This document shows, piece after piece, positions 9,438-41,006 of a stretch of 64,000 nucleotides of DNA. Both the position numbers and the translations under genes were made by a program. The stretch lies in the NCBI GenBank assembly GCA_964638585.1, contig CAZXAN010000003.1, positions 30,047-94,046 of the forward strand, read 5' to 3'. The stretch is from an uncultured Candidatus Saccharibacteria bacterium. GTDB lineage: Bacteria > Patescibacteriota > Minisyncoccia > Phycocordibacterales > Phycocordibacteraceae. The notes beneath the pieces were generated by a model. That model was given only the letters and a program-made list of their open reading frames with translations, did no database searches and was not told the origin of the DNA. How positions within the stretch are numbered: position 1 is the stretch's first letter; each line of letters begins with the position of its first letter.

Positions 9438-12074
9438 CTAATACAAATCGTTCAACTTGGCGCGCGTAATAGCTCCGACGTAGCCGGTGGTTTCAATGCC
9501 GTACTTCTGCTGGAAGTCTTTCACTGCGTTGAAAGTTTGGCTGTAGAAACCGCCTGTGATTTCTCCAGTGAAGAGACCTTCCATCGTGAGCGCTGTCTGA
9601 AGCGCCTTTACGTCAGCGGTATAGGGAGAGCCTACCTGCAGGTCGTTAGACCAAGTGTACGTATACTTAGTGCTCGCGCCCAAGACCGAGAATACCGGCC
9701 ATATCTGCGTGCCGGCATAGGTACATGTGTATTTACCACCACTCTCTGCGTTATATGATGAGCACCACGACATACAAGCGTCTTGTCCACCCTCGATGTT
9801 TATCGTACTCGTATACGCTTCACTGTAGTAGGTACAGGCAACAGTGGCTGACGTAATCGTAAACGACCCAACGACCTGTGGGCCAACAGCAGAATATGAC
9901 GCAGTCGCAGGATAGTAGCCGTAGCCGTTATAGGTACCAGTTTGAGAAGCCGAGAAGGTCCCTGCAGGAGTATAGGTAATGACTTCTGTAGAGCCGTTAC
10001 CTCTGGTCCACTCATCACTCGTATAGTCGCGGTAATTAGTGGGCGCATTATTGCAACCTGTGTCACCACTCTTAGCAGCACATGCCTTCACTGAAATATT
10101 TCTATTAAGTCCGGTTACTTTGACAAATAGATTTTGATCTGTGCGTACAGAGCCATTAAGAGTCCATGGGCCACTCACTGAATCAGAAACATATGTTCTC
10201 ACATTGTCTAGAGACGGAGGAGTAGAGACACTGCCGGAAGTCACTGTGAATTGTCTCGCATTACTGGTGCCGTTCGCGTTACCAACTGTGATGTTGTACG
10301 TGCCCGGGGTAACAGGAGCTGGACCCACAAAACACTGTGCACCTGCCGGACAATTATTCAACTCAGACGGAACGATAAAATTCAATCTTGTTAAGAGTCC
10401 GCCAATTGGAGCGGAAAATGGAACAACAAAACCGTTAAAATAAACGGTGCCATTATACGTAAAATCTGTGCCGTAAATGGTGACCTGTGTCCCTATAGGT
10501 CCGGATGTCGGCGAGAGCGAAGTGATTGTAGGCGCTTGTGTAGCTGAACCACTGACGTTCACACTGACGCTTGTTTGTGCTGTTTGACCAGAGTTGTTGG
10601 TAACTGTGAATCTTGGAGCATAATTCCCTGCTTGGTTATAGGAGTGGGTAAATGTTGCCTGTTGGCTTGTCGGATATGCATAAGCTAATGAACCGGAGCC
10701 ACTGCCTGCAGATGCTTCATCTCCCCACACCACACTGTAGTTGAGATTGCCTCCATTTGGATTTGACGCATTCACCGTCCATGTTCCCTGCTGACTGACC
10801 TGAAGCGAGACCGGACCGGAAACACCTGAAATAACTGGCGCTTGTGTGGTTCCGCTCGTAATCGTGAAGTAACTATCGCTTGAGTCGCATGTGGAAGTGC
10901 CGGATTGGCAGACTTCAATTATGTATGAACCATCTGATGGTAAGGATTGTCCTCCAGTAGAACTGTTTGGCCCTCCTTCGTATGAAGCTACCAGCCAGCT
11001 GAATGAAGAACCAGTAACTCTTTTTGCAATCGTGTACGGTGCATTATATGGATACGATGGACATATGTTGCCGGTACAAGGTGCGTAATATGGAGATAAC
11101 TTGATGTCATATGGAAGCCCTAGACACGAGCTCCCAGAAGGACAGATGCGAGAAATAGCAGTCCAGTCAGACCAGGAAATAGTTTGTGTCGTTCCCTTGG
11201 TCCATGTTTCTCCGCCATTAGGAGATGTGACTGTTATTGGTCCTTGTGCTGTTCCACCAGAAGTTACCGTGATGATAACAGTACCGACTGTTTCTTGGCG
11301 AGAGTACCAATCCGCACAAGCAATTTCGCTTGTTCCACTACAGGTGTTATACACTGTCTTCATTAGTTTTGCCGTGTAAGTACCGACAGAGGTGTAGGTG
11401 TGGGGGTTGGTCATGTAACAGATGCCTGCATAAGTGCAATTGTTGTCCCTAATAGGTTCAGAGGTGAGCCCGTCACCGTAGTTTATTGAGTATGGGGTCG
11501 CATATTCCCCCGAATACGCAGATTGAATTGAAAACGTCACAGCAAGAGGAGCCGGTCCAGAAGTCGGGTAGGCAGAGAAAGTATTGCTCGGCTGCGGAGG
11601 AGGAGTGATTCTGCATCCATACAAGCTATTCAATTTCGCTCTCGTGAGCGGGCCGACATAGCCAGTCTGACGGATGCCGTACTTGGCTTGGAATTGGACA
11701 ACGGCAGAAGCAGTATTTTCAATAAATACTCCATCATCGGATACCAGAGTGGCTGGCTGACCCTCAAAAGAGACTGGATCGCCAACACCCTCTTTTTGAA
11801 GAACAGTATCAAGTGCTCGCACATCGCTCCCATTGCTTCCTATGGTGAGATTGGCGTTAAACGTATGACACCAAGGTTGAGAACTGCCACTTCCACCACT
11901 TGAACCCGTGAGAGCAGAGTTGACATTTGAAATAGTCGCGCTGTCTGCACCAAAGGACGAAAGGAGCGAGAGGATAGCCTGCACCTGCGCATTCGTCAGA
12001 CCGGCGGCCTGCGTAAGCGAAGGAGAGAGCACTACAGAAACCGCAAGAACAGCGCTAAATAAGTACTTTTTCAT
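9438..12074 (-). CDS. Large secreted protein with N- and C-terminal peptidoglycan-binding (PG_binding_1-like) domains and central Ig/PKD-like Cys-rich modules
   Basis: Signal peptide present. PG-binding-like segments are found near both termini (...QFQAKYGIRQTGYVGPLTRAKLNSLYG and ...DFQQKYGIETTGYVGAITRAKLNDLY). The central region is Thr/Ser/Gly-rich with paired Cys residues. Confidence 0.7.
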   Translation of the reverse strand: MKKYLFSAVLAVSVVLSPSLTQAAGLTNAQVQAILSLLSSFGADSATISNVNSALTGSSGGSGSSQPWCHTFNANLTIGSNGSDVRALDTVLQKEGVGDPVSFEGQPATLVSDDGVFIENTASAVVQFQAKYGIRQTGYVGPLTRAKLNSLYGCRITPPPQPSNTFSAYPTSGPAPLAVTFSIQSAYSGEYATPYSINYGDGLTSEPIRDNNCTYAGICYMTNPHTYTSVGTYTAKLMKTVYNTCSGTSEIACADWYSRQETVGTVIITVTSGGTAQGPITVTSPNGGETWTKGTTQTISWSDWTAISRICPSGSSCLGLPYDIKLSPYYAPCTGNICPSYPYNAPYTIAKRVTGSSFSWLVASYEGGPNSSTGGQSLPSDGSYIIEVCQSGTSTCDSSDSYFTITSGTTQAPVISGVSGPVSLQVSQQGTWTVNASNPNGGNLNYSVVWGDEASAGSGSGSLAYAYPTSQQATFTHSYNQAGNYAPRFTVTNNSGQTAQTSVSVNVSGSATQAPTITSLSPTSGPIGTQVTIYGTDFTYNGTVYFNGFVVPFSAPIGGLLTRLNFIVPSELNNCPAGAQCFVGPAPVTPGTYNITVGNANGTSNARQFTVTSGSVSTPPSLDNVRTYVSDSVSGPWTLNGSVRTDQNLFVKVTGLNRNISVKACAAKSGDTGCNNAPTNYRDYTSDEWTRGNGSTEVITYTPAGTFSASQTGTYNGYGYYPATASYSAVGPQVVGSFTITSATVACTYYSEAYTSTINIEGGQDACMSWCSSYNAESGGKYTCTYAGTQIWPVFSVLGASTKYTYTWSNDLQVGSPYTADVKALQTALTMEGLFTGEITGGFYSQTFNAVKDFQQKYGIETTGYVGAITRAKLNDLY

Positions 12075-14063: not shown

Positions 14064-14153
14064 GGAGAGGTGGGTGAGTGGCTGAAACCAGCACGCTGCT
14101 AATGTGCCAGACCCGAAAGGGTCTCGAGGGTTCGAATCCCTCCCTCTCCGCCA
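14064..14153 (+). tRNA. tRNA-Ser (anticodon GCT)
   Basis: Acceptor GGAGAGG/CCTCTCC, anticodon stem GCACG/TGTGC with loop CTGCTAA, long variable arm, T-loop GGTTCGAATCC, discriminator G and encoded CCA. Confidence 0.9.
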
Positions 14154-23493: not shown

Positions 23494-23527
23494 AGGGCGG
23501 GACATCATGTCCCGCCCTGTGTTTTCC
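23494..23527. terminator. Hairpin GGGCGGGACAT/ATGTCCCGCCC followed by GTGTTTTCC
   Basis: Perfect 11-bp stem. The T-run is on the + strand and only a weak U-run exists on the minus strand, so the strand assignment is uncertain. Confidence 0.5.
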
Positions 23528-23734
23528 GATTATCTTGGTTTTAGGATTAATCGGCAACCCCTAGTGCTTTGATTCCGAGTGAGTTTCGCCTCTCACTATC
23601 CCTCATTTAATTTATAACGCGCAGAGAGAGCTGCGCTATCGTTCAATCATCGCTACTAGGCTCCATTTTGTGGTTTACGCGGCTCTGGTCGAGGGTTTTT
23701 ATTTTCGTGAGAACCTAATAACTCACGTTGCGGT

Positions 23735-24076
23735 TCAGACGAACCGCGTCCTGACCGGCGCTTTCGCGTGCTGGCAGGAGTTGCCGTGGATGGTGGCCAA
23801 ATACGCTGCCATAATCCCACGCGGCACCATGCCCAACGGCATGTTACGCATCGTCTTGACCAAATTCCCACGTTGACTGACGCGGGTGAACTCAACGTCA
23901 GCGAACTCTTTTTTTGCAACCGGGCGCTCGGCTCTGCCGAGAAACGCGGCAAGAATGAGCTCACGGTTGGCCGCATCGTCCCCGTCGTTCTTCTTCACGA
24001 CGCGGATGACTCGTGGCGTAAACCCAGCCGCGACCAACTCTGCGATTGTCATGTCAAACACGTTTTTTCCGTTCAT
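23735..24076 (-). CDS. Hypothetical 113-aa protein, compositionally foreign (GC-rich, SD-preceded)
   Basis: An AAAGGAGAA SD lies 6 nt upstream, a TTGACA-N16-TATACT promoter lies upstream, and third codon positions are G/C-skewed, unlike neighbouring genes. Confidence 0.5.
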   Translation of the reverse strand: MNGKNVFDMTIAELVAAGFTPRVIRVVKKNDGDDAANRELILAAFLGRAERPVAKKEFADVEFTRVSQRGNLVKTMRNMPLGMVPRGIMAAYLATIHGNSCQHAKAPVRTRFV

Positions 24077-24140: not shown

Positions 24141-24168
24141 AGTATACACGAATAGCTGTATTTGTCAA
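24141..24168 (-). promoter_or_regulatory. Sigma70-like promoter TTGACAaata-N16-TATACT for the 113-aa ORF
   Basis: On the minus strand: TTGACAAATACAGCTATTCGTGTATACT. Confidence 0.55.
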
Positions 24169-31363: not shown

Positions 31364-31669
31364 TTATTTAATAATGCCGAGAATGTTTGATTCTGAAAGA
31401 ATGTAGTACTCCTGGCTGTCTATTTTTACTTCGTCGTAGCCGTATTTACTGAATAAAACAGTATCTCCGACTTTGACCTGCATCGGGACGCGTTTACCGT
31501 CTTCATATTTACCTGGACCAACAGCGATAACTTCGCCCTTCGCTGGCTTCTCCTTATCTACCGTCTCTGGAATAATAATGCCAGACGCGAGCTTCTTCTC
31601 GCCCTCTTTTTCGGAAGGTAATACAACTATCCTGTCGCCCAAAGGCACTAGTGAAAGTTTCTTTGCCAT
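31364..31669 (-). CDS. groES: Co-chaperonin GroES (Cpn10)
   Basis: LVPLGDRIVV... ; 101 aa. Confidence 0.95.
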   Translation of the reverse strand: MAKKLSLVPLGDRIVVLPSEKEGEKKLASGIIIPETVDKEKPAKGEVIAVGPGKYEDGKRVPMQVKVGDTVLFSKYGYDEVKIDSQEYYILSESNILGIIK

Positions 31670-31758
31670 ATCTATTTATATAAATGAATAATCGCCCCTT
31701 CTCCCACGTTGGAGGAGTATAAGGAAAATATCTTTGATATGCAACTTTTTTACAACAA

Positions 31759-33729
31759 TTAGAACTCTTGGAAGATTTGCGATACGTTCACTGTCGCCGA
31801 TCTTGTAATAGTATTGTCACCAACAGTCGTACAGGTAATGGTGTAGGTTGATCGTGCAGAGATGGCAGGAGCGATTGGAGAGCCGGTTGAAAAGGTGTTG
31901 CTAGCACTTGCGTTCCCGCTCGCGAGGATACCAGAGGGGCCAGAGACCGTACAAGACTTAACTCCTGTGGCGCTCCAAGTGATGGTGGAGGGGGTGCCTG
32001 TGCGTACGCGAGATGGGTTAGCGCTTATGGTTGCATCTGGAGCTAGGACCTGTACAGAGGCAGACGCTACTTGAGATCTACCTCCTGGCCCATCGCACCA
32101 AAATACATAGGTCTTTGTACCTGCTGTACTTAGTACACCAGTAGAGGTGTTGCCAGTGCTGTTTGTGCCGGTGAATCCGGTCGCCGTACAGCTAGTAACG
32201 CTACCTGAGACTGTCCATCTTATTGTTGTTGACTGTCCTGTCTCAATTTGAGATTTGTCGACTGATAGCGTGGCGGTGGGGGCGCAGGCTTGAATGCTGC
32301 AGGCTTGGCTTGTCGCCCCTGAACAAGCGGATCCGCCATTGAGAGGTGCCGGGTTTGTACAGGTCCTTGTCTGTGTACCGCCACCACAACTTACAGAACA
32401 AGCTGACCACGCTGACCAGCCGCCATTTATGCTGCATGTAGGTGGGTTGGTGGCGCCGTTCGTGCATGGATTGAAAGTAGTGCAGGTCGGTGGATTGTTG
32501 GCGCCGTTTGAACATGTCGCGTTTGAAACCACAATATTGGTCCACGCGCCACAGTTGTTATTCTCGTTTGATTCTACGATAACACCGTTTGGTTGTGGCG
32601 GGAGATCGGCACAAACGCGGACAGAATAGGAACCATTTGATGGGAATGTGTATGACTTGCTAAATGTGCCACTACTGCCAGCGGCTAGAGTCGTCATGTT
32701 AACTGAAGATGTGTCTGTGATGTTTCCTGTAGGATTACCGTTCGGTTTATCATTCACTTGCATGAAATTGTTGAAAGACGCACCTGTACTGCCTGTACCG
32801 ATATTGCTTATAGTCGCGCTAAGAGTGGTAGCGACACCTGCTGTTGCAGTTGTTGGAGTAACTGCGCCTGCTGTGAGGTCTGGTGGTCCGAGGACGGAGA
32901 AGTAGACTCTCGCCGGACTAGCAGGAGCCATCATCTGGAAGTTCCAACACTCGGCTTCTGCGTAATACCCTGACCTGGGCGTCATACCACCAGCTGGAAA
33001 TCCGTTATTTGCCTGATTCACGACTGTTATGTTAGCACCGCCCGTAATATCCCGTACCCACCGAGGACTGCTCTGGTCGTATGTGCCGGGAGGCAGAGCG
33101 CCGCCCGTCCGACTCATGACGCCCGGAGTGTTATATGGGCCGTAATAGAATGTTCCAAAACGTATCGGCTGCATCCAGCTTCCGGTATTTTCATACGTAA
33201 ACCAGCCGGGGCCTTGTAGGAGTTTGGTCGTTCCTATAGTAGTGGGAACTGTCCAGGTCAGAGGAGGATTGTACGGTGCACAGGTCCGTACACCTGTATA
33301 CATATCGTAAGTACAATTGTTATAGTCGTAGTACCGAGTATAGGTGACAGTAGTGGGGGTTGGGTCGTATACAGTAACCTGACAGCCGTGGACCGAATTT
33401 GTTGAAGCAAGATAGAAGGTAGCATTTTCTCCATACGGCACAGGATTTTTCTCCATACTCAGTATTATTGTCCCAGAACCGTTGTATTGAAATCCTCCAC
33501 AGCCTTCCGCTGTGACCTCTTCACAATAACCATAGGGCGGAGCGCCATGACACTGTAAATATGTGCATGCAGAAACTGCATAATTGCAAACTCCCGATCC
33601 GTCATTTTCGCAACATACACTGCCATCTGGGTTACATGTTTGAGATGCGTTCGCCACATCTGCATATCCAATAAATGAAAAACCAGCTATGACAATAGCT
33701 ATCGAGAAATATGACAGTGCGGTTTTCAT
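31759..33729 (-). CDS. Secreted Cys-rich protein with a thrombospondin type-1 (TSP1)-like repeat and two C-terminal Ig-like repeats
   Basis: Signal peptide present. The segment [35 protein letters not shown] matches the TSP1 WSxWSxCSxxCGxGxxxRxRxC pattern. It is followed by two ~80-aa repeats containing TI(R/T)W(T/S)..G..SCT. Confidence 0.65.
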
Positions 33730-34544
33730 ATACGAGTATTAGTAATAATGATCGCCTGTGCCAGAGGTTTTTGTTCTATTAACGATTTGACGGATATCAT
33801 GATGAACACTGGCATATCGGCTTTTACGTCAGACAGTGTGGCAGGTGTTCTGGCGTGAAGTATCTTCGCTCTCTGTGTCGAGTCAACGCTATATACGGGG
33901 ATATTATCTATTAAAGATACGCTTTTTGTCGTAGTGCTCACACCACCAGTCGGTATGTATGTTTTATATTCAAGCACCTTGTTCGTCACGTCTAGTCTAA
34001 CAACTTGAACACTAATATATATATTTTCTGCATTTAACGATAATTGGATTTGTTCTTTATTATATTCAGAAAACTTCTGTGTCGCATTGAAATCAATAGC
34101 CACTACCCCGCTCGACACACCGTCTATAATCGGAGCGAATGTCGCCATGAGATTAGTACCAGCTTTCACATCCGCAATATTCACTTCTCTGGACTTCATA
34201 TCTTTTTCCACCCCTTTGTCATCGGTAAGCGAGAGAGTCTCGGTAATGACAGTATCGGGTTTTATCTTGAGAGTGGTTTGTTTGGATGATGTGGCAATAG
34301 TTATCTCCAATTTATCTTGGTCCACACTCACAACCGTACCTTCAAGTGTCGGCAGATCAACAATGGTATTGGTCGCAGGAGACGTAGTGACAGATGATTT
34401 TTTCATCTGCGGTATATATACCAATGCAAAAGCAATAACGAGAATTAAGACCCCTACCCCAAATGCTATTTTCATTTCGTCGGTAACTGTCACAATGGTT
34501 CTAGTATACGTCATGAGTCTCCAGTCAACGCGCCCTATCCACAC
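33726..34544 (-). CDS. Hypothetical membrane-anchored protein
   Basis: TM helix near the N-terminus and no recognised domain. The true start is probably internal (MTYT.. or MKIAF..). Confidence 0.4.
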
Positions 34545-34556
34545 GAGTGTTAATAA

Positions 34557-34826
34557 CTATTCAAATAGATCTGCGTGTGTGCCAGTGCGAACAAGTAGGA
34601 CTTCTTCGTCGGTAATATCGTAAATCAGAAGCCAGTCAGATTCTATATGGCACTCCCAGAGCCCTACGTATTCGCCAGAGAGTTTGTGCGGACGCGCGTT
34701 TTCGAGAAGCTGTTCCTCTTTTTCGAATAATCTTAAAAGTGTTACTAGCTTCTGAAGACTCCAGTTACGTTTCTGGATTCGTTTCAAATCTCTTTTATAC
34801 CGTGCTGTCGGGAGAAGAATTTTCAT
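34557..34826 (-). CDS. yafQ: Type II toxin YafQ (RelE/ParE superfamily mRNA interferase)
   Basis: 89 aa ending ...DEEVLLVRTGTHADLFE, as in YafQ. Paired with an upstream DinJ-like gene. Confidence 0.75.
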   Translation of the reverse strand: MKILLPTARYKRDLKRIQKRNWSLQKLVTLLRLFEKEEQLLENARPHKLSGEYVGLWECHIESDWLLIYDITDEEVLLVRTGTHADLFE

Positions 34827-34832
34827 TTCCTA

Positions 34833-35141
34833 CTATTTTGCACGCCAATTCTTTCCGAGGATAGCGGTAAACATTCCCTCTGTCGTCGCGTAACTTTTTA
34901 ACTTGTCTCGCTTAGCTGGGTTCCTGAGTTCCTCTATTGCTTTTCGGGTTTCTGCGTTTGGGGTATGACTTGGATAGGGACAGTCTGCTTCGAGAACGAG
35001 TCTCCGGTCACGCACGAATTGTTTTAACATCGAATTCATCACTGTCGTCAGAGGCACTCCAATTTCTTGAGCTGTCTGTTTCGCATCGTCGCGAAGCTTT
35101 TTGGGCGTTTTTACCGTAAGAGTCGTATTCATACTCATCAT
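34833..35141 (-). CDS. dinJ: Antitoxin DinJ (RelB/DinJ family)
   Basis: A ribbon-helix-helix-like N-terminus (TLTVKTPKKLRDDAKQTAQEIGVPLTTVMNSMLKQ), located 6 nt upstream of yafQ. The exact start is uncertain (M at 35141 or 35132). Confidence 0.65.
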   Translation of the reverse strand: MMSMNTTLTVKTPKKLRDDAKQTAQEIGVPLTTVMNSMLKQFVRDRRLVLEADCPYPSHTPNAETRKAIEELRNPAKRDKLKSYATTEGMFTAILGKNWRAK

Positions 35142-35230
35142 ACTACTTTTAGTACGATTTATTGTCAAACGGTAAAGTTATTCCCATGTCTCCGGTGCCC
35201 TAACTCTTGAAATGTTACAATTGTAGTTAT

Positions 35231-38200
35231 ATGAACAAATATCTTATTGGCACCGCCTTTCTGCTCGCCGCTCTTTCTCCATCTCTTGCTGTAGCACAAG
35301 CGGTCACCCCAACCGTAATAACTGACATTACCTATAACGGGAACCTAAAACTTGACCTGTATCGTCCAGGAATCGCGAATGCTCCAGTCGTGGTCTATAT
35401 ACACGGAGGGACGTGGGCTGGTGGTGATAAGGGTCCAGCGAGTAGCGTTATAAACGATGCCAGTGTCATTCCAAGAGCCCTGTCCAACAAAGGACTTAAT
35501 GCAATTTCAATAAATTACACGTACGTTCCACAGGGTTCTTACCCGAAACAGCTACAAGATGTAGATTGTGCCCTCCGATGGATTGCGTCCAACGCTGTAA
35601 GCTATGGATTTAATTTAAACAAAATATATCTCGGCGGTGCCTCTGCGGGCGGGCACATGGCACTGCTATATAGTCTAAATCAGGCGGCTTATCGTGACCC
35701 AACATGCCCATATAACGTAGTGTCTCCATCTGTAAAAAAAGTTTTCTCATTTGCAGGACCAACTGATCTCACTAACATCCCTCAGACGGTAACCATTCCC
35801 GATGGCACTGTTATACAAATTAAGCAGGGCGTAGATCGCTTCTTAAATGGTACGTCTGCTTCAGTAGCAAGCCCCATCACATACGCAAATAGATCAAACG
35901 GCGTTCAATATTTGTTGATAAACACTAGGGACGATGATGCAGTAATCTTCGCTGACCAAGCCACTCCTTTTTACAATAAACTTCTCCAATGGAATCCTGG
36001 CAACGTGCAAAATAAATGGTACGACACACTCGGTGGCGGACATGGCACGCTTGGCCCGGTCAGATACGTGTGGGACAGTACTGCGCCAGAATATCCTGAT
36101 TATTTTAACACTATCTCATCTTTCGTATTGATGAGTAGTGTAGCACCGCCACCCTCTAGATCTTTCTCAAACGTGAGAGTGTATGTAGCCAGCACAAAAG
36201 ATGAAAACGCAAATTGGGTGCAGAATGGTTCGGTGCGATTTGATCAACATCTATACGTCAAGGCGACGGGTCTTGACTCTTCACGGCCACCAAAAATCTG
36301 CTCTGATAAAGTAACCGCCAGTGGCTGTAACAAATACTCAGGCTTACACTACCGAGACTACATAGACAGCGAGTGGGTTGACTCAACAACCGCAATAACT
36401 CACGTCGCCCCATATCAATTCCCTGCTGGTACCTACAATGCCTTTGGATATTACCCAGAAACTGGGGTGAAAAAGGTTGGAACGTTTACTATAACTCGTG
36501 TGCCATCTGCAACAGTGGCTCCCACACAAGTAAAATCAACCACTCCGTCTAGCCCCAGCCAATCTCCACAAACAATGCCGTCATATCAGACTGTATCTAC
36601 TGGTCCCGCTCCTAAAATCACACTTTCTTATCCTTCTGTAGTAACTCAAGGAGAGTCAACAACGATAACAGGATACGGTTCTAACCTCCTGCAGGGTCTA
36701 ATGATATTCTTCACAGGCTCTGCAACAGGCTCGCTTTCTCCTTCTTTTGTATCTTCAACAAAATACCAATTTAATTCTGGCACCTTCACTCCTGGTAGCT
36801 ACTCTTTCTACGTGCAAAATCCTAATGGTAAGAAGTCTGGCAGTCTGTCACTCACAGTCAATGCTCCTCTTGTTGTGACTGGAGGTGGCGGTGGTGGTGG
36901 AGGGAGTGGTGGCGCCATCCCTCCCGGACCTTCATGTGGCGGAGCGATAGTGACTACTGGGAGTGGTACTGGCGGAACCACTAATACATGTATTTGGAGC
37001 TACAGCGGTTTCAGTCCCGCACCTCCTGCGCCATCTGCTTCTTCGTGTACACAGAGTAATATTGGGGCAACGACGGGAGACTCGCGTGGCACATATACCT
37101 GCGCCTGCGCGTCGCAGAGTACAACTTCTGTGAACGGCACCTGTGGCACTTCTGCTTGCCAGTCATTCTCTTCTGCTCCAACTGCAGGGCTATGCAGTAC
37201 CGGCACAGCTTCAACCGCCACTGGTTCTGGTCCATTCACATGGACGTGCTCTGGCAGTAACGGAGGCAGTACTGTGAGATGCTCTGCCGGTCTCGGTTCT
37301 GGAGGAGGTGGCGGCGGAGGTGGTGGTGGAGGTGGGTCTCCTGCGACTTGCAACACTGCTGCGGGAGAAGTCTTCGGACCAAACGACTACATCAATCCAA
37401 TGGGATCCGGCACTCTCTACCCGAGAGAGGGACAATTGCAGGCGACTGGTAATCTCGGCATTGCCATTATGTTTACTGCTGACTCACGCGCCATATCAGA
37501 TGTTATGAGAATGGGTATACACGACGAAGGAAGTCATGGGGCCAAAGAGGTAGTCATTAGCAAGTGCCCGCACAACTTCGAACCCGCTGGAGGCAATGCT
37601 GCGTGTCGTATAGATAAATCGTATGATTATGATGCTCGCTTTGATCTAAGGTTCGGTCAGCAAATAAATAGATACGAATGTGCTATACCAGCGGGCGAGA
37701 CGTATTACATGAATTTCCGAGATGCCACTACACCGCGCGGTACGGTAGCAGCATATGTTCTTAATTACTCTGGAGTGTCTAACGGCCAGACTGTTAACGG
37801 CTCGTGCGGCTCCTCAAACGGCAAATCATTCAGCGTTGCGCCGACAAACGGCCTTTGTACAAATGGAACGCCGTCCAGGATATCAACAGGCTCTAACTTC
37901 ACTTGGACATGCGCTAGCTTAAACGGTGGTACTACTGCGAGCTGTTCGGCGAACAAAGGAACTGCAGGTGGTGGAGGCGGAGCTGTTAGTTGCAACGTTT
38001 CTGCAGGAGAGACATTTGGACCGAATGACATTACTAATCCGATGACTATCGGGTATCTTTGGCCGACTAGTTTGGCGAACATTAGTGGTCCACTCGGAAC
38101 TGCTGTCAAATTTGTAGCAGATGCCACAACATTCCCGAGCGGTCTTGAAATGCAAGTGTTTGACGAGGGTGGACATCCTACAAAAGAAGCTGTGATTAGC

Positions 38201-38407
38201 GCCTGCCCTCACAACTTCACTCCAATCAACAATAGTATTTATTGTCGCAATGCGCATATATCGCTTCACTCTAGTTTTAGACTCAGCTTCGGACAGCCTA
38301 AGACAGCGTACGATTGCAACTTGCAACCAAATCAAACATATTATTTGAACGTCCGCGCCTCTGATCTCGGTTCAACAGCAACGCAGTTCTATAACTTTAC
38401 TCGCTGA
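35231..38407 (+). CDS. Large secreted protein: N-terminal alpha/beta-hydrolase (esterase/lipase, GXSXG=GASAGG) fused to Gly-linkers and repeated Cys-rich C-terminal domains
   Basis: Signal peptide present. Esterase motifs VVVYIHGGTWAGGD and LGGASAGGHMAL. Two Cys-rich C-terminal repeats, G10-13 linkers, and a domain shared with the 878-aa protein. Confidence 0.7.
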   Translation: MNKYLIGTAFLLAALSPSLAVAQAVTPTVITDITYNGNLKLDLYRPGIANAPVVVYIHGGTWAGGDKGPASSVINDASVIPRALSNKGLNAISINYTYVPQGSYPKQLQDVDCALRWIASNAVSYGFNLNKIYLGGASAGGHMALLYSLNQAAYRDPTCPYNVVSPSVKKVFSFAGPTDLTNIPQTVTIPDGTVIQIKQGVDRFLNGTSASVASPITYANRSNGVQYLLINTRDDDAVIFADQATPFYNKLLQWNPGNVQNKWYDTLGGGHGTLGPVRYVWDSTAPEYPDYFNTISSFVLMSSVAPPPSRSFSNVRVYVASTKDENANWVQNGSVRFDQHLYVKATGLDSSRPPKICSDKVTASGCNKYSGLHYRDYIDSEWVDSTTAITHVAPYQFPAGTYNAFGYYPETGVKKVGTFTITRVPSATVAPTQVKSTTPSSPSQSPQTMPSYQTVSTGPAPKITLSYPSVVTQGESTTITGYGSNLLQGLMIFFTGSATGSLSPSFVSSTKYQFNSGTFTPGSYSFYVQNPNGKKSGSLSLTVNAPLVVTGGGGGGGGSGGAIPPGPSCGGAIVTTGSGTGGTTNTCIWSYSGFSPAPPAPSASSCTQSNIGATTGDSRGTYTCACASQSTTSVNGTCGTSACQSFSSAPTAGLCSTGTASTATGSGPFTWTCSGSNGGSTVRCSAGLGSGGGGGGGGGGGGSPATCNTAAGEVFGPNDYINPMGSGTLYPREGQLQATGNLGIAIMFTADSRAISDVMRMGIHDEGSHGAKEVVISKCPHNFEPAGGNAACRIDKSYDYDARFDLRFGQQINRYECAIPAGETYYMNFRDATTPRGTVAAYVLNYSGVSNGQTVNGSCGSSNGKSFSVAPTNGLCTNGTPSRISTGSNFTWTCASLNGGTTASCSANKGTAGGGGGAVSCNVSAGETFGPNDITNPMTIGYLWPTSLANISGPLGTAVKFVADATTFPSGLEMQVFDEGGHPTKEAVISACPHNFTPINNSIYCRNAHISLHSSFRLSFGQPKTAYDCNLQPNQTYYLNVRASDLGSTATQFYNFTR

Positions 38408-38477
38408 AGCCTCGGTGCTAAAAATTCTGGCGATGCGACCATTGTTTTTAAAATAAATTCTAACTCTTTGTCAAGAC

Positions 38478-38505
38478 TTGACGGAATATGGCACAAGAGT
38501 AGGGT
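38478..38505 (+). promoter_or_regulatory. Promoter-like TTGACG-N16-TAGGGTGC upstream of small secreted protein 1
   Basis: The TAGGGTGC box recurs at 39189-39196 upstream of secreted protein 2. Confidence 0.4.
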
Positions 38506-38585
38506 GCTGTCAGGAAGAAGTTGTAAAAGTTGCTAAGTGGATTCCCCACTTGGCGCCCTGTTTGACAAACCAAAGGAGCAGTAAA

Positions 38586-39098
38586 ATGAATAGGATCGCT
38601 CGCTTCACCGCATCACTGCTGTTCGTCGCCGCGCTGTTCCCCGTCCAGGCAATGGCTCAGAAAATGGGTATCCTCGGGGAGTGGGGGTTCAACTTTTCCA
38701 ACGGTCGTTTCCTCAGCCAATCGGTGGAACACAGCTTCGCCGACCTTGGAATGGGTACGGTAACTGTTGAGTTCTCAGCGGTGCCGAGAATCTCCGCGAC
38801 CAAGGAGCTCTATACCGGAAACGTCAAGTCAATCGAGGGTTGGAGCCCCGGATTACAGCCCTACCCCTTCTCTTTTGTTGAGATGTCGTGCACACCGACG
38901 TTTTGGGCGTGCGACATCAGGGTCGTGATCAACTGGAAGGGTCACCTGATCTACGATCTGAACTGGGAGATGGAGGGCAACGTCTCGGTGTCGGGTAAGA
39001 AAATGCTCGGCTCTGAAATGGGGCTTTATTACGAGCAGGGACTAAAGGATCCGTCCTTGCGGTTCTACACAGACATTCACGCCACGAAAGTGAAGTGA
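38586..39098 (+). CDS. Small secreted protein 1 (170 aa, unknown function)
   Basis: Signal peptide (MNRIARFTASLLFVAALFPVQAMAQ), SD AAAGGAG 8 nt upstream, own terminator, GC-enriched. Confidence 0.6.
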   Translation: MNRIARFTASLLFVAALFPVQAMAQKMGILGEWGFNFSNGRFLSQSVEHSFADLGMGTVTVEFSAVPRISATKELYTGNVKSIEGWSPGLQPYPFSFVEMSCTPTFWACDIRVVINWKGHLIYDLNWEMEGNVSVSGKKMLGSEMGLYYEQGLKDPSLRFYTDIHATKVK

Positions 39099-39120
39099 CG
39101 AAAAGGGCAGGACATCACGA

Positions 39121-39152
39121 CGCCGGGGACTTTTGTCCTCGGCGTTTTTTTA
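39121..39152 (+). terminator. Intrinsic terminator CGCCGGGGA-CTTTTG-TCCTCGGCG plus TTTTTTTA
   Basis: 9-bp stem with one mismatch, followed by a T8 run. Confidence 0.75.
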
Positions 39153-39164
39153 TTTAAAAAGAAT

Positions 39165-39194
39165 TTGACAAAATAACGCTATATACTGTAGGGT
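39165..39194 (+). promoter_or_regulatory. Promoter-like TTGACAAAATAA...TATATACTGTAGGGTG upstream of secreted protein 2
   Basis: Shares the TTGACAAA(A)TAA / TATATACT boxes with 39864-39892 and 24141-24168 (minus strand). Confidence 0.45.
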
Positions 39195-39263
39195 GCGACC
39201 AGATGTCCCCGTATAGGCGAAGAGATTCGTCTGCGGTTTCTGCAACTAATATTAGAGGTGATC

Positions 39264-39803
39264 ATGAAAAAGCTCGTGTTTGGTATTTTCGGCGCCATAG
39301 TGGCACTTGCAACAGCCGCAATACCTATGACAGCATCAGCCGCCATGCAGATTGACTCACAGCTGTTGGGTCGCAAGAGTCTTGAAGTCTGTAATGGCGG
39401 GTGGATGACTCCCGATGGAAGTCGCGGGAGCTTCACCTGTCGGACCTGGGAGTTGAATATGCAGTTCGGCCAGATATACCCAGCCTACCAGGGCTACCCT
39501 GAATTGGCGTTATACTTCGGAAATGTCGTAAACTCATGTGGGTCTGGATCGGCAGTTGAACTGTACATAGAGGCTACCAGGCCTGAAGTCGCCGAGATAC
39601 GAGTGCGCCTGGACGTGTGCGATGTACCGCCGATAAACGGCATCCCGCAGGTGTACCTTATCTTGAGCGGTAATCTCTACGCCACGCATCGCCAACATCT
39701 GTACGGGGTGACAACGTCGATAATGTACGATAACCGGAAGCTGGACGGCCACCCGAAAAATATCGGCATGTACGTCGGGTTCGTCGACATAACGCCGAAA
39801 TAG
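39264..39803 (+). CDS. Small secreted protein 2 (179 aa, unknown function, 6 Cys)
   Basis: Signal peptide MKKLVFGIFGAIVALATAAIPMTASA, SD AGAGGTG, own promoter and terminator. Confidence 0.6.
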   Translation: MKKLVFGIFGAIVALATAAIPMTASAAMQIDSQLLGRKSLEVCNGGWMTPDGSRGSFTCRTWELNMQFGQIYPAYQGYPELALYFGNVVNSCGSGSAVELYIEATRPEVAEIRVRLDVCDVPPINGIPQVYLILSGNLYATHRQHLYGVTTSIMYDNRKLDGHPKNIGMYVGFVDITPK

Positions 39804-39821
39804 TTTTCACTCACTCACTTA

Positions 39822-39849
39822 TCGCCAGCCACGTGCTGGCGATTTTTTT
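39822..39849 (+). terminator. Intrinsic terminator TCGCCAGCCACGTGCTGGCGA plus TTTTTTTA
   Basis: Perfect 8-bp stem followed by a T7 run. Confidence 0.8.
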
Positions 39850-39863
39850 ATACCATGACACCT

Positions 39864-39892
39864 TGACAAATAATCACTTTAGGTATATACTA
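39864..39892 (+). promoter_or_regulatory. Sigma70-like promoter TTGACA-N17-TATACT upstream of secreted protein 3
   Basis: TTGACAAATAATCACTTTAGGTATATACT. Confidence 0.55.
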
Positions 39893-39960
39893 TACGTAGT
39901 AGTTCCCCGCTAGGCATCCTGCCTATCGGGCTTTCACAACCAAAGAAAGGAAGTAAAATC

Positions 39961-40632
39961 ATGATGAAATGGCTTGCAGCTGTATTGTTAGTCCTCGGGA
40001 TTTCTGCGAATCTGCCCCAGGCCTCGGCTCAAATGGGGCCACCGACTGTAGGACCGACGCTAGTCGCCTCGTTTGCAGTCCCTTGCGAGATCTACGCCGG
40101 GTACTTCGGTATCCCGGCAGGGTACACAATGGGAATGGGGTACTTCGATGTGTATGACGGAGGCGACCCGTGGATTATCAAATACAACGGCGGCTGTATG
40201 CGGCCGGCGACGCGCTTAGCCGGCAGCATGTCAACCAACCTCGTCGTGAAGATGCTTAAGAAGGGCGCCTTGAGTGGTGGGACCACTCAATACACCTTCG
40301 GGCTCGATATAAAGACCGGACAGATGAATGACGACGGGAGTGAGTACTACTCTTCTGTCGTTCTCAATGGTTGGACGACCAATGGTGCATCCGCGACCGT
40401 CAGCTTCGACCCGAGACAAGGCGCAGGAGAGATTTATTTCTACTTACCACTTCAGACACCTGTTGGACAGGATCAGGCGTTTCTCCAATTCGGTTGCAGA
40501 TTCTTCTCTACAACAGCAAACGAAAGAGAGTGGAAAGGGTTCCTGAATAATTACGCCGATTATCAAGACGGAGGTCGTACGGTCGTCACGATCGGAGGCG
40601 GCGAGTGCTCCGCGAGCCCCAGTAAGGGCTAA
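39961..40632 (+). CDS. Small secreted protein 3 (223 aa, unknown function)
   Basis: Signal peptide MMKWLAAVLLVLGISANLPQASAQ, SD AAGGAAG 7 nt upstream, own terminator. Confidence 0.6.
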   Translation: MMKWLAAVLLVLGISANLPQASAQMGPPTVGPTLVASFAVPCEIYAGYFGIPAGYTMGMGYFDVYDGGDPWIIKYNGGCMRPATRLAGSMSTNLVVKMLKKGALSGGTTQYTFGLDIKTGQMNDDGSEYYSSVVLNGWTTNGASATVSFDPRQGAGEIYFYLPLQTPVGQDQAFLQFGCRFFSTTANEREWKGFLNNYADYQDGGRTVVTIGGGECSASPSKG

Positions 40633-40650
40633 ATCGGCATCGCAGGACGA

Positions 40651-40686
40651 ATCGCCGGGCTCCGTAAGGAGACCGGCGATTTTTTA
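40651..40686 (+). terminator. Intrinsic terminator ATCGCCGG...CCGGCGAT plus TTTTTAT
   Basis: 8-bp perfect stem with a 14-nt loop, then a T-run. Confidence 0.7.
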
Positions 40687-40697
40687 TACACGAGTTT

Positions 40698-40725
40698 ACC
40701 CAGCACCTATTCACATAGGTGCTGG
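40698..40725. promoter_or_regulatory. Perfect 12-bp inverted repeat CCCAGCACCTAT-TCAC-ATAGGTGCTGGG upstream of secG
   Basis: Lies between the preceding terminator and the secG -10 (TATATT), so it could be an operator or an RNA hairpin. Confidence 0.4.
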
Positions 40726-40766
40726 GTTGCGCGCGTTTGATGCTCCGTGCTATATTAGGAGCACAG

Positions 40767-41006
40767 ATGGAGGCACTCGTATCGGCACTACCGTACGCGG
40801 AAATAATCCTCTCAATACTCCTCATCGTCGGCATCGTGCTACAACAGCGCGGAGCCACCCTCGGGGGAGCCTTTGGAGGAGACAACTTCGCGTCGACGTT
40901 TTATAAGCGCAGAGGCGCCGAGAAATTTCTATTTAACGCGACAATCGTAATCGCGATTCTTCTCGTACTCGCAGCCGTAGCGAACTTCCTTCTGGCAGGG
41001 TTATGA
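40767..41006 (+). CDS. secG: Preprotein translocase subunit SecG
   Basis: About 80 aa with two TM helices and a Gly-rich loop (LQQRGATLGGAFGG). SD AGGAG 6 nt upstream. The raw ORF's N-terminal extension is discarded. Confidence 0.7.
   Translation: MEALVSALPYAEIILSILLIVGIVLQQRGATLGGAFGGDNFASTFYKRRGAEKFLFNATIVIAILLVLAAVANFLLAGL

Follow-up and report, generated by a model that had tools for sequence, protein, structure and literature searches.

The DNA analyzed here, which we call the window, is a 64,000-nt stretch of contig CAZXAN010000003.1 from an uncultured bacterium. Upstream of secG, its forward strand carries three small genes for predicted secreted proteins, which we designate A (38586–39098, 170 aa), B (39264–39803, 179 aa) and C (39961–40632, 223 aa). 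Each gene forms a monocistronic cassette, in which a 5′ untranslated region (UTR) of 70–80 nt with a hairpin is followed by a Shine–Dalgarno sequence (SD), the open reading frame (ORF) and an intrinsic terminator. The SDs are AAGGAG for A and AAGGAAG for C, both 7 nt 5′ of the ATG, and GAGGTGATC for B, where it directly adjoins the ATG.

All three products start with a predicted Sec signal peptide that fits the pattern of signal peptidase I substrates: one or two Lys/Arg residues lie within the first eight residues, the hydrophobic region reaches an 11-residue Kyte–Doolittle maximum of 2.4–2.8, and small residues occupy positions −3 and −1. Cleavage is predicted after AMA at about residue 24 of A (MNRIARFTASLLFVAALFPVQAMA, followed by Q), after ASA at about residue 26 of B (MKKLVFGIFGAIVALATAAIPMTASA, followed by A) and after ASA at about residue 23 of C (MMKWLAAVLLVLGISANLPQASA, followed by Q). 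The mature parts contain even numbers of Cys residues (two in A, four in B and four in C); that of A is predicted to be all-beta with a single CX6C pair, while C consists of two modules. None of the three proteins has a lipobox Cys near its cleavage site, an LPXTG or other sortase motif (the C-termini are ...HATKVK, ...VDITPK and ...SASPSKG) or a hydrophobic, potentially transmembrane window past residue 35. Because they lack a membrane, lipid or sortase anchor, the products are probably released or held non-covalently on the surface.

The predicted promoter of C (39863–39891, +) reads TTGACA-N17-TATACT and matches the consensus at 11 of 12 positions. By motif search, we predicted promoters for A (38478–38507, +; TTGACG-N16-TAGGGTGC) and for B (39165–39196, +; TTGACA-N18-TAGGGTGC). 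The composite motif TTGAC[GA]-N16/18-TAGGGTGC occurs twice in the window compared to 0 expected occurrences, and it is kept before two cassettes of a related contig, L006: the promoter of A is conserved there, and the promoter of B is homologous to that of an unrelated L006 gene, D. A metagenome scan for the pattern shared by the A and B promoters returned 0 matches. A palindrome, GTCAAG-A-CTTGAC, at 38469–38483 (+) overlaps the −35 box of A and is conserved at about 2639–2653 of L006. On the opposite strand, it gives rise to a further TTGACA box; it could serve as an operator or promote transcription in both directions.

The three terminator hairpins begin 17–21 nt past the stop codons and are each followed by a T-run. 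They lie at 39119–39153 (+) for A (12-bp stem, −23.1 kcal/mol, z = −4.2 against shuffled sequences), at 39821–39850 (+) for B (9-bp stem, −15.3 kcal/mol, z = −5.9) and at 40649–40688 (+) for C (−26.7 kcal/mol, z = −3.8), the last of which is also an inverted repeat. An initial annotation of this DNA had assigned to each gene a signal peptide, an SD, a sigma70-like promoter and a strong intrinsic terminator. The signal peptides and SDs are borne out by our reading of the sequence and a signal-peptide heuristic, and the terminators by their z-scores and T-runs. By sequence, the promoter assignment fits C and, in part, A and B, which have a good −35 box and an atypical −10 box.

The groES/secG site and its codon usage

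The three cassettes lie within an accessory region of 9097 nt (31670–40766) that splits a divergent GroES(−)/SecG(+) gene pair. Its left-hand anchor is groES (31364–31669, −), recognized from the Cpn10 annotation on contig L001 and from synteny in relatives, and its right-hand anchor is secG (40767–41006, +; PF03840, E = 1.5e-12), which is followed by an SBP_bac_5 gene; RNase J is a further neighbor. We collected relatives of the locus with the SBP protein, obtaining Candidatus Kaiserbacteria/Paceibacterota metagenome-assembled genomes at 49–75% identity; a metagenome scan with the same protein found no relative above 75% identity, and exact matches to the SecG sequence came from the same population only. 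Across the relatives, secG is 73–97% identical, always lies 5′ of the SBP_bac_5 gene, and the secG–SBP pair is always preceded by divergent groES–groEL genes. In 80 distinct relatives the gap between groES and secG measures 84–5494 nt (median 424 nt, and below 200 nt in 32 of them), compared to 9097 nt in the window.

In the window, the gap contains in order a CARDB/TSP1 secreted protein gene, a 272-aa ORF, a YafQ/ParE toxin–antitoxin pair, a gene for a 1066-aa secreted esterase and, last, A, B and C. Among relatives with long contigs, L058 is the closest (SBP protein at 74% identity). It carries two esterase-like secreted protein genes and a terminator, with secG about 100 nt further on, and there are no small genes between its esterase-like gene and secG. 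When 129 related loci were searched with tblastn, homologues of A, B or C appeared only on two short contigs of another study, L006 and L062, which come from other uncultured bacteria. The junctions of the region are identical in at least seven independently assembled contigs from several samples, and are therefore not chimeric or an assembly artefact. All copies of the islet in the source population are 100% identical. Several assemblies of that population break at or near A: L005 ends past A, L007 begins inside A and L008 begins just before B. These breaks may reflect strain heterogeneity or coverage problems.

The third-position GC content (GC3) of the three genes is 0.725 for A, 0.633 for B and 0.621 for C, compared to 0.435 ± 0.046 for the bulk of the window's genes (n = 41), corresponding to z-scores of 6.2, 4.3 and 4.0. 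The raised GC content noted in the initial annotation is therefore found in the genes and not in the spacers between them, which have a host-like GC of 0.42–0.45. Because the other GC3-rich genes of the window encode the ribosomal proteins L20 and L18 and the initiation factor IF-3, we tested translational selection as the source of the deviation. A, B and C have a higher GC3 than every ribosomal-protein gene in the window, and the shift in their log relative synonymous codon usage from the bulk is uncorrelated with the shift of ribosomal and chaperone genes (r = 0.07, and −0.17 among GC-ending codons). They freely use GGG, CCC, CGG, AGG and CTG, which ribosomal-protein genes avoid, and under-use TCT, CCA and CGT, which the host prefers. 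With this lack of correlation and the use of avoided codons, translational selection was ruled out at the codon level; the codon deviation is genuine and of another kind than that of host genes with high expression. Contig L062 is GC3-rich throughout (0.63–0.70).

The proposal that the three genes form an island is upheld in the form of a 9.1-kb insertion in the GroES/SecG pair, absent from the 129 related loci and with codon usage that is not host-like. A, B and C are clearly not conserved housekeeping exported proteins of ordinary composition.

Relatives of the three proteins and their shared leaders

We searched 5.8 billion proteins with A, B and C using a word-indexed method, and 1.84 billion representatives with C using an exhaustive phmmer search. 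The word-indexed search found one homologue of A, the protein P0002 on L006, with 84% identity over the mature part, and returned only self-matches for B, a singleton, and for C. The signal peptides of A and P0002 are heavily diverged. Their mature parts differ by 0.10 nonsynonymous (dN) and 0.85 synonymous (dS) substitutions per site, and the ratio of 0.12 indicates that A is under strong purifying selection. On L006, the gene order is an esterase-like gene, a polysaccharide deacetylase, the A homologue and then D, which encodes a 153-aa secreted protein without blast similarity to anything. Searches of Pfam, NCBIfam, PHROGs, PADLOC and PDB sequences with A, B, C, D and P0006, a 173-aa secreted protein of L062, gave no matches.

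The phmmer search revealed remote relatives of both modules of C. Residues 28–92 match tandem repeats in P0005, P0007, P0008 and P0009 (E = 1.2e-12 to 3.6e-6). The repeat unit, C..YAGxYGIPAxAT.G...WTKNSC....YTGGC, is about 50 aa long and occurs in two to six copies in large secreted proteins, one of which also carries M6/reprolysin-like, TIG and PG_binding_1 domains; one of the repeat proteins, MDO8552194.1, is annotated as peptidoglycan-binding. No Pfam or NCBIfam model covers the unit. C contains a single copy of it (approximately residues 39–86; 40075–40218, +), reading C..YAGxYGIPAxxT.G....Y.GGC, which aligns at 35–45% identity and keeps the outer Cys pair and the YAG, G-IPA, T-G and Y-GGC elements. 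Within this module, A46, G47, G50, P52, G58 and G78 are invariant and C42, Y45, T56, Y75 and C79 nearly so. Unlike the large proteins, C lacks the second Cys pair of the unit and, at a length of about 200 aa, joins the unit to another C-terminal domain. Elsewhere in the window, the 878-aa ORF at 9438–12074 contains a weak match to the repeat (11397–11516, −; E = 0.001), and the N-terminus of that ORF is 49% identical to a 972-aa PG_binding/CARDB protein of L062.

The C-terminal domain of C (approximately residues 80–216; 40198–40608, +) matches P0006 at 33–35% identity (E = 1.4e-10) and has two conserved Cys residues. The P0006 gene follows that of the 972-aa protein, lies directly 5′ of secG, and has its own TTGACA-N17-TATACC promoter, UTR hairpin and terminator. 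Because it is located directly upstream of secG, P0006 is the positional counterpart of C. Protein D probably belongs to this family as well, as its third member: its hhalign score against the C/P0006 profile is 25.3, compared to 11.9 ± 2.2 for composition-preserving shuffles (none of 120 as high), and both conserved Cys residues align.

By eye, A, B, C and D had all been suspected to be diverged paralogues. When hhalign scores were compared with those of shuffles, only the grouping of D with C and P0006 was supported. Shuffled sequences scored as high in 6 of 120 and then 14 of 100 trials for B against the C family, in 16 of 100 for A against the C family, in 72 of 100 for the A family against D and in 39 of 100 for the A family against B, so none of these comparisons is significant. 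The description of the three proteins as unrelated is thus supported for their mature parts by blastp and hhalign, but not for their leaders, since the 5′ UTRs of A and C are alike (z = 7.0). Similarly, the lack of a recognizable family is confirmed by the database searches, with the exception of the remote relatives of C. At least A, with its purifying selection, and C, with its remote homologues, are judged to be real genes from these comparisons.

Structure predictions were made for A and C with AlphaFold2. From two sequences, A was modeled as all-beta with a pLDDT of 48.8. From a 14-row alignment, C reached a pLDDT of 60.9 overall; its N-terminal module was confidently modeled as a small beta unit (above 90), with about 55 for the C-terminal domain. 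Foldseek searches with the models found nothing significant, and these weak models suggest at most a generic beta-barrel. Any resemblance to avidin/calycin-like small up-and-down beta-barrels is a hint of shape only, with no sequence similarity, no assignable ligand-binding residues and a model pLDDT of about 50–55.

Comparison of the window with L006 shows that DNA homology begins at the −35 box of A, spans the gene and the terminator behind it, reaches into the promoter that follows, and ends right after a TA[GA]GGTGC box, at the point where B in the window replaces D in L006. The 5′ UTR of A (38508–38585, +), which contains a central 9-bp hairpin and the SD, is identical to the UTR of the L006 A gene at 60 of 74 positions (z = 17.9) and to the UTR of D at 57 of 72 positions (z = 12.5). 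The DNA encoding the signal peptide of A resembles that of D (53 of 71 positions, z = 7.9) more than it does the corresponding DNA of its own orthologue (z = 4.3). When the three leaders are aligned together, alternating patches are seen. Because patches of UTR and signal-peptide DNA alternate among A, its L006 orthologue and D, the expression-and-export leader is, on this sequence comparison, a recombining module common to cassettes with unrelated cargos. The 5′ UTR of C is weakly similar to that of A, and the 5′ UTR of B has no similarity to those of the other cassettes. Every cassette UTR has a central hairpin; individually, the hairpins are mostly no better than those of shuffled sequences. 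RNAalifold found no consensus structure among the 5′ UTRs, and Rfam searches gave sub-threshold chance matches only.

Origin and function of the secreted-protein genes

We consider it probable that A, B and C form a lineage-restricted accessory patch of secreted-protein genes at a groES/secG plasticity hotspot of Kaiserbacteria/Paceibacterota, shaped by piecemeal turnover and exchange among relatives. Exchange among related Kaiserbacteria, together with piecemeal turnover, is the most likely origin because the GC3-rich codons are unlike those of bulk and ribosomal-protein genes and resemble those of higher-GC relatives. The genes would have been gained and lost piece by piece at the hotspot, possibly with some vertical descent, rather than transferred as one block, and recombination would have moved the leader between cassettes with unrelated mature parts. 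Piecemeal turnover fits better than one acquisition because L006 carries A and then D, and L062 a C-like gene alone.

A single, recently acquired block from one GC-richer donor, in the manner of a classical genomic island or mobile cassette, would agree with the adjacency, common strand and similar GC3 richness of A, B and C, with their absence from relatives and with the toxin–antitoxin pair in their surroundings. We regard it as quite improbable. No integrase, transposase, tRNA or direct repeat accompanies the genes; relatives carry A with D or a C-like gene alone, and never the block; the intergenic spacers have a host-like GC; and copies from the source population are 100% identical, with no presence/absence polymorphism seen. 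A single old transfer followed by drift to host composition does not fit either, because both A orthologues are GC3-rich at a dS of about 0.85. The same observation speaks for native, vertically inherited and very fast-evolving genes of a Kaiserbacteria subclade, with a high GC3 due to selection, for example for high expression or mRNA properties, and not to foreign origin. Also in favor of such genes are the C-like gene at the same position directly 5′ of secG in L062, the identity of the remaining GC3-rich window genes (L20, L18 and IF-3), and the strong promoter of C, SDs and terminators, which suggest high expression. This explanation is nonetheless rather unlikely: the codon preferences of the three genes depart from the ribosomal-protein pattern (r = 0.07; GGG, CGG, CCC and AGG are used freely), their GC3 lies above that of all ribosomal-protein genes in the window, L058 has no such genes between its esterase-like gene and secG, and B has no counterpart anywhere in the word-indexed search. 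The initial annotation's laterally acquired cassette is retained in part: the genes are missing from relatives and their codon usage is not host-like, but there are no marks of mobility and the genes do not travel as a block. It had also suggested that the proteins are effectors, toxins or immunity proteins. A module of the toxin/immunity or bacteriocin type, in which secreted toxins or effectors act against a host or competitors and the producer is protected, has circumstantial points in its favor, as the products are small, secreted, Cys-containing, lineage-specific and of fast turnover, and genes for a secreted esterase/deacetylase and a peptidoglycan-binding protein adjoin them. It is extremely improbable, considering that all three products carry export signals, so that none resembles a cytoplasmic or membrane immunity protein; that PADLOC, PHROGs, Pfam toxin families and PDB gave no match; that there is no dedicated transporter or processing gene; and that A is under purifying, not diversifying, selection.

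Several observations weigh against a patch of exchanged, exported accessory genes. No integrase, transposase or recombinase was found between 31.3 and 41.2 kb, no flanking direct repeats were found around the accessory region, and there is no tRNA at it, the window's sole tRNA being located at 14064. In relatives, ORFs within the groES/secG gap show no significant enrichment of signal-peptide-like N-termini (14 of 57, compared to 267 of 1260; P = 0.51), and the signal peptides of A, B and C were themselves judged with a home-made heuristic. The −10 box TAGGGT of the predicted A and B promoters retains only TAnnnT of the consensus beside a good −35 box, which is why a sigma-70 scan missed both promoters. 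No terminator was found between the 1066-aa esterase gene and A, and A may therefore also be transcribed by read-through from upstream. Small genes are somewhat GC3-richer than their neighbors in L006 and L062 as well, and the A orthologues have both kept a high GC3 at their dS of about 0.85; some selective cause of the high GC3 is possible.

Assuming an accessory patch of this kind, each product would be exported by means of a cleavable Sec/signal peptidase I signal peptide, yielding small, mostly beta mature proteins with paired cysteines. Outside the cell, they may bind small ligands or the surfaces of host cells or cell walls. In C, a Cys-rich module of adhesin type would be joined to what may be a small beta-barrel; as a sequence shared with giant secreted peptidoglycan-binding and peptidase proteins, the Cys-rich module points to surface binding, not toxicity. 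Candidate phyla radiation (CPR) bacteria, or Patescibacteria, are thought to live attached to other microbes by means of molecules about which little is known. Exported, disulfide-bonded proteins that are specific to one lineage and encoded at a locus of fast turnover are reasonable candidates for contact or scavenging, and the groES/secG site offers a defined place for comparing strains. That unrelated cargos have a leader in common gives a hint of how new secreted proteins come to be expressed. A broader proposal is that Kaiserbacteria diversify their secreted proteins by repeatedly recombining a modular leader (a TTGAC-N-TAGGGTGC promoter, a hairpin 5′ UTR and a signal peptide) onto unrelated mature sequences at a fixed hotspot by secG, an integrase-free form of cassette exchange. 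We consider this improbable.

The locus resembles genomic islets and plasticity hotspots in its insertion between conserved anchors, variable content, atypical codons, nearby toxin–antitoxin genes and lineage-specific genes. It differs in having no integrase, tRNA or flanking repeat, and in a cargo of self-contained monocistronic secreted-protein genes with no mobile-element backbone. Among the classical marks of a genomic island, atypical composition and absence from relatives were found, and an integrase, tRNA and direct repeats were not. Integron cassettes are promoterless ORFs, each with an attC imperfect palindrome, downstream of intI/attI. The genes described here are unlike them, since each has a promoter-like site and a Rho-independent terminator, and there is neither an integrase nor a shared attC-like repeat. 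CPR genomes often contain variable surface loci and genes for small secreted proteins that are uncharacterized; a Gracilibacteria genome, for instance, encodes 24 small proteins with signal peptides and has a hypervariable secreted gene (PMC6851277). The present case shares with it uncharacterized Sec-exported proteins, a reduced and presumably symbiotic genome and a variable locus presumed to face outward, but the islet varies by gene presence or absence and by leader recombination between species, and not by intragenic repeats within a population. What is new here lies in the details, namely the groES/secG hotspot, three very small new families and a mosaic leader; neither the kind of system nor the mechanism is novel.

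Neighboring genes and a further orphan

Other genes of the accessory region also encode secreted proteins. At 31759–33729 (−) lies the gene for a 656-aa secreted, Cys-rich protein with CARDB and a thrombospondin type 1 repeat (PF00090, E = 1.4e-9), a repeat known mainly from animals. The 1066-aa secreted protein encoded at 35207–38407 (+) carries a BD-FAE/alpha-beta-hydrolase esterase domain in its N-terminal part, together with poly-Gly linkers and a Cys-rich C-terminal domain that is internally duplicated, with copies about 44% identical. Diverged versions of this esterase are present at the same hotspot in relatives, and in L006 a polysaccharide deacetylase follows. The toxin–antitoxin pair inside the variable region (34557–35132, −) consists of a YafQ/ParE-family toxin of 89 aa and an upstream partner of 99 aa, which fits accessory or mobile DNA. 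A VKOR homologue (PF07884; 49070–49573, −), located 8 kb downstream, could plausibly supply disulfide-bond formation, and thus oxidative folding, to the Cys-rich exported proteins of the region.

Between the islet and secG, we read a perfect 12-bp palindrome at 40699–40726 (CCCAGCACCTAT-tcac-ATAGGTGCTGGG); a similar palindrome, CAGCAC...GTGCTG, is located upstream of cassette A in L006. A hairpin directly before secG (40742–40762, +) pairs GCTCC with the SD GGAGC, and an analogous CCCCCT/AGGGGG hairpin covers the secG SD at about 4130–4156 of L062. These hairpins could represent a conserved SD-sequestering element that controls secG translation.

The compositional oddity of A, B and C recurs at 23735–24076 (−), where a 113-aa orphan ORF that is not secreted has a GC3 of 0.72 (z = 6.1). 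Pfam, NCBIfam, PHROGs and PADLOC gave no match to it, and none of the fetched loci contains a homologue. The ORF has its own TTGACA-N17-TATACT promoter at about 24141–24168, a UTR hairpin and the SD AAAGGAG, and is flanked by an AbiEii toxin gene and by an operon for a CsoR-type repressor and a copper ATPase. The non-coding segment following its stop codon (23500–23735, −) matches no Rfam family at the gathering threshold; it extends for about 230 nt and leads to a strong terminator-like hairpin (GGGCGGGACATGATGTCCCGCCC).

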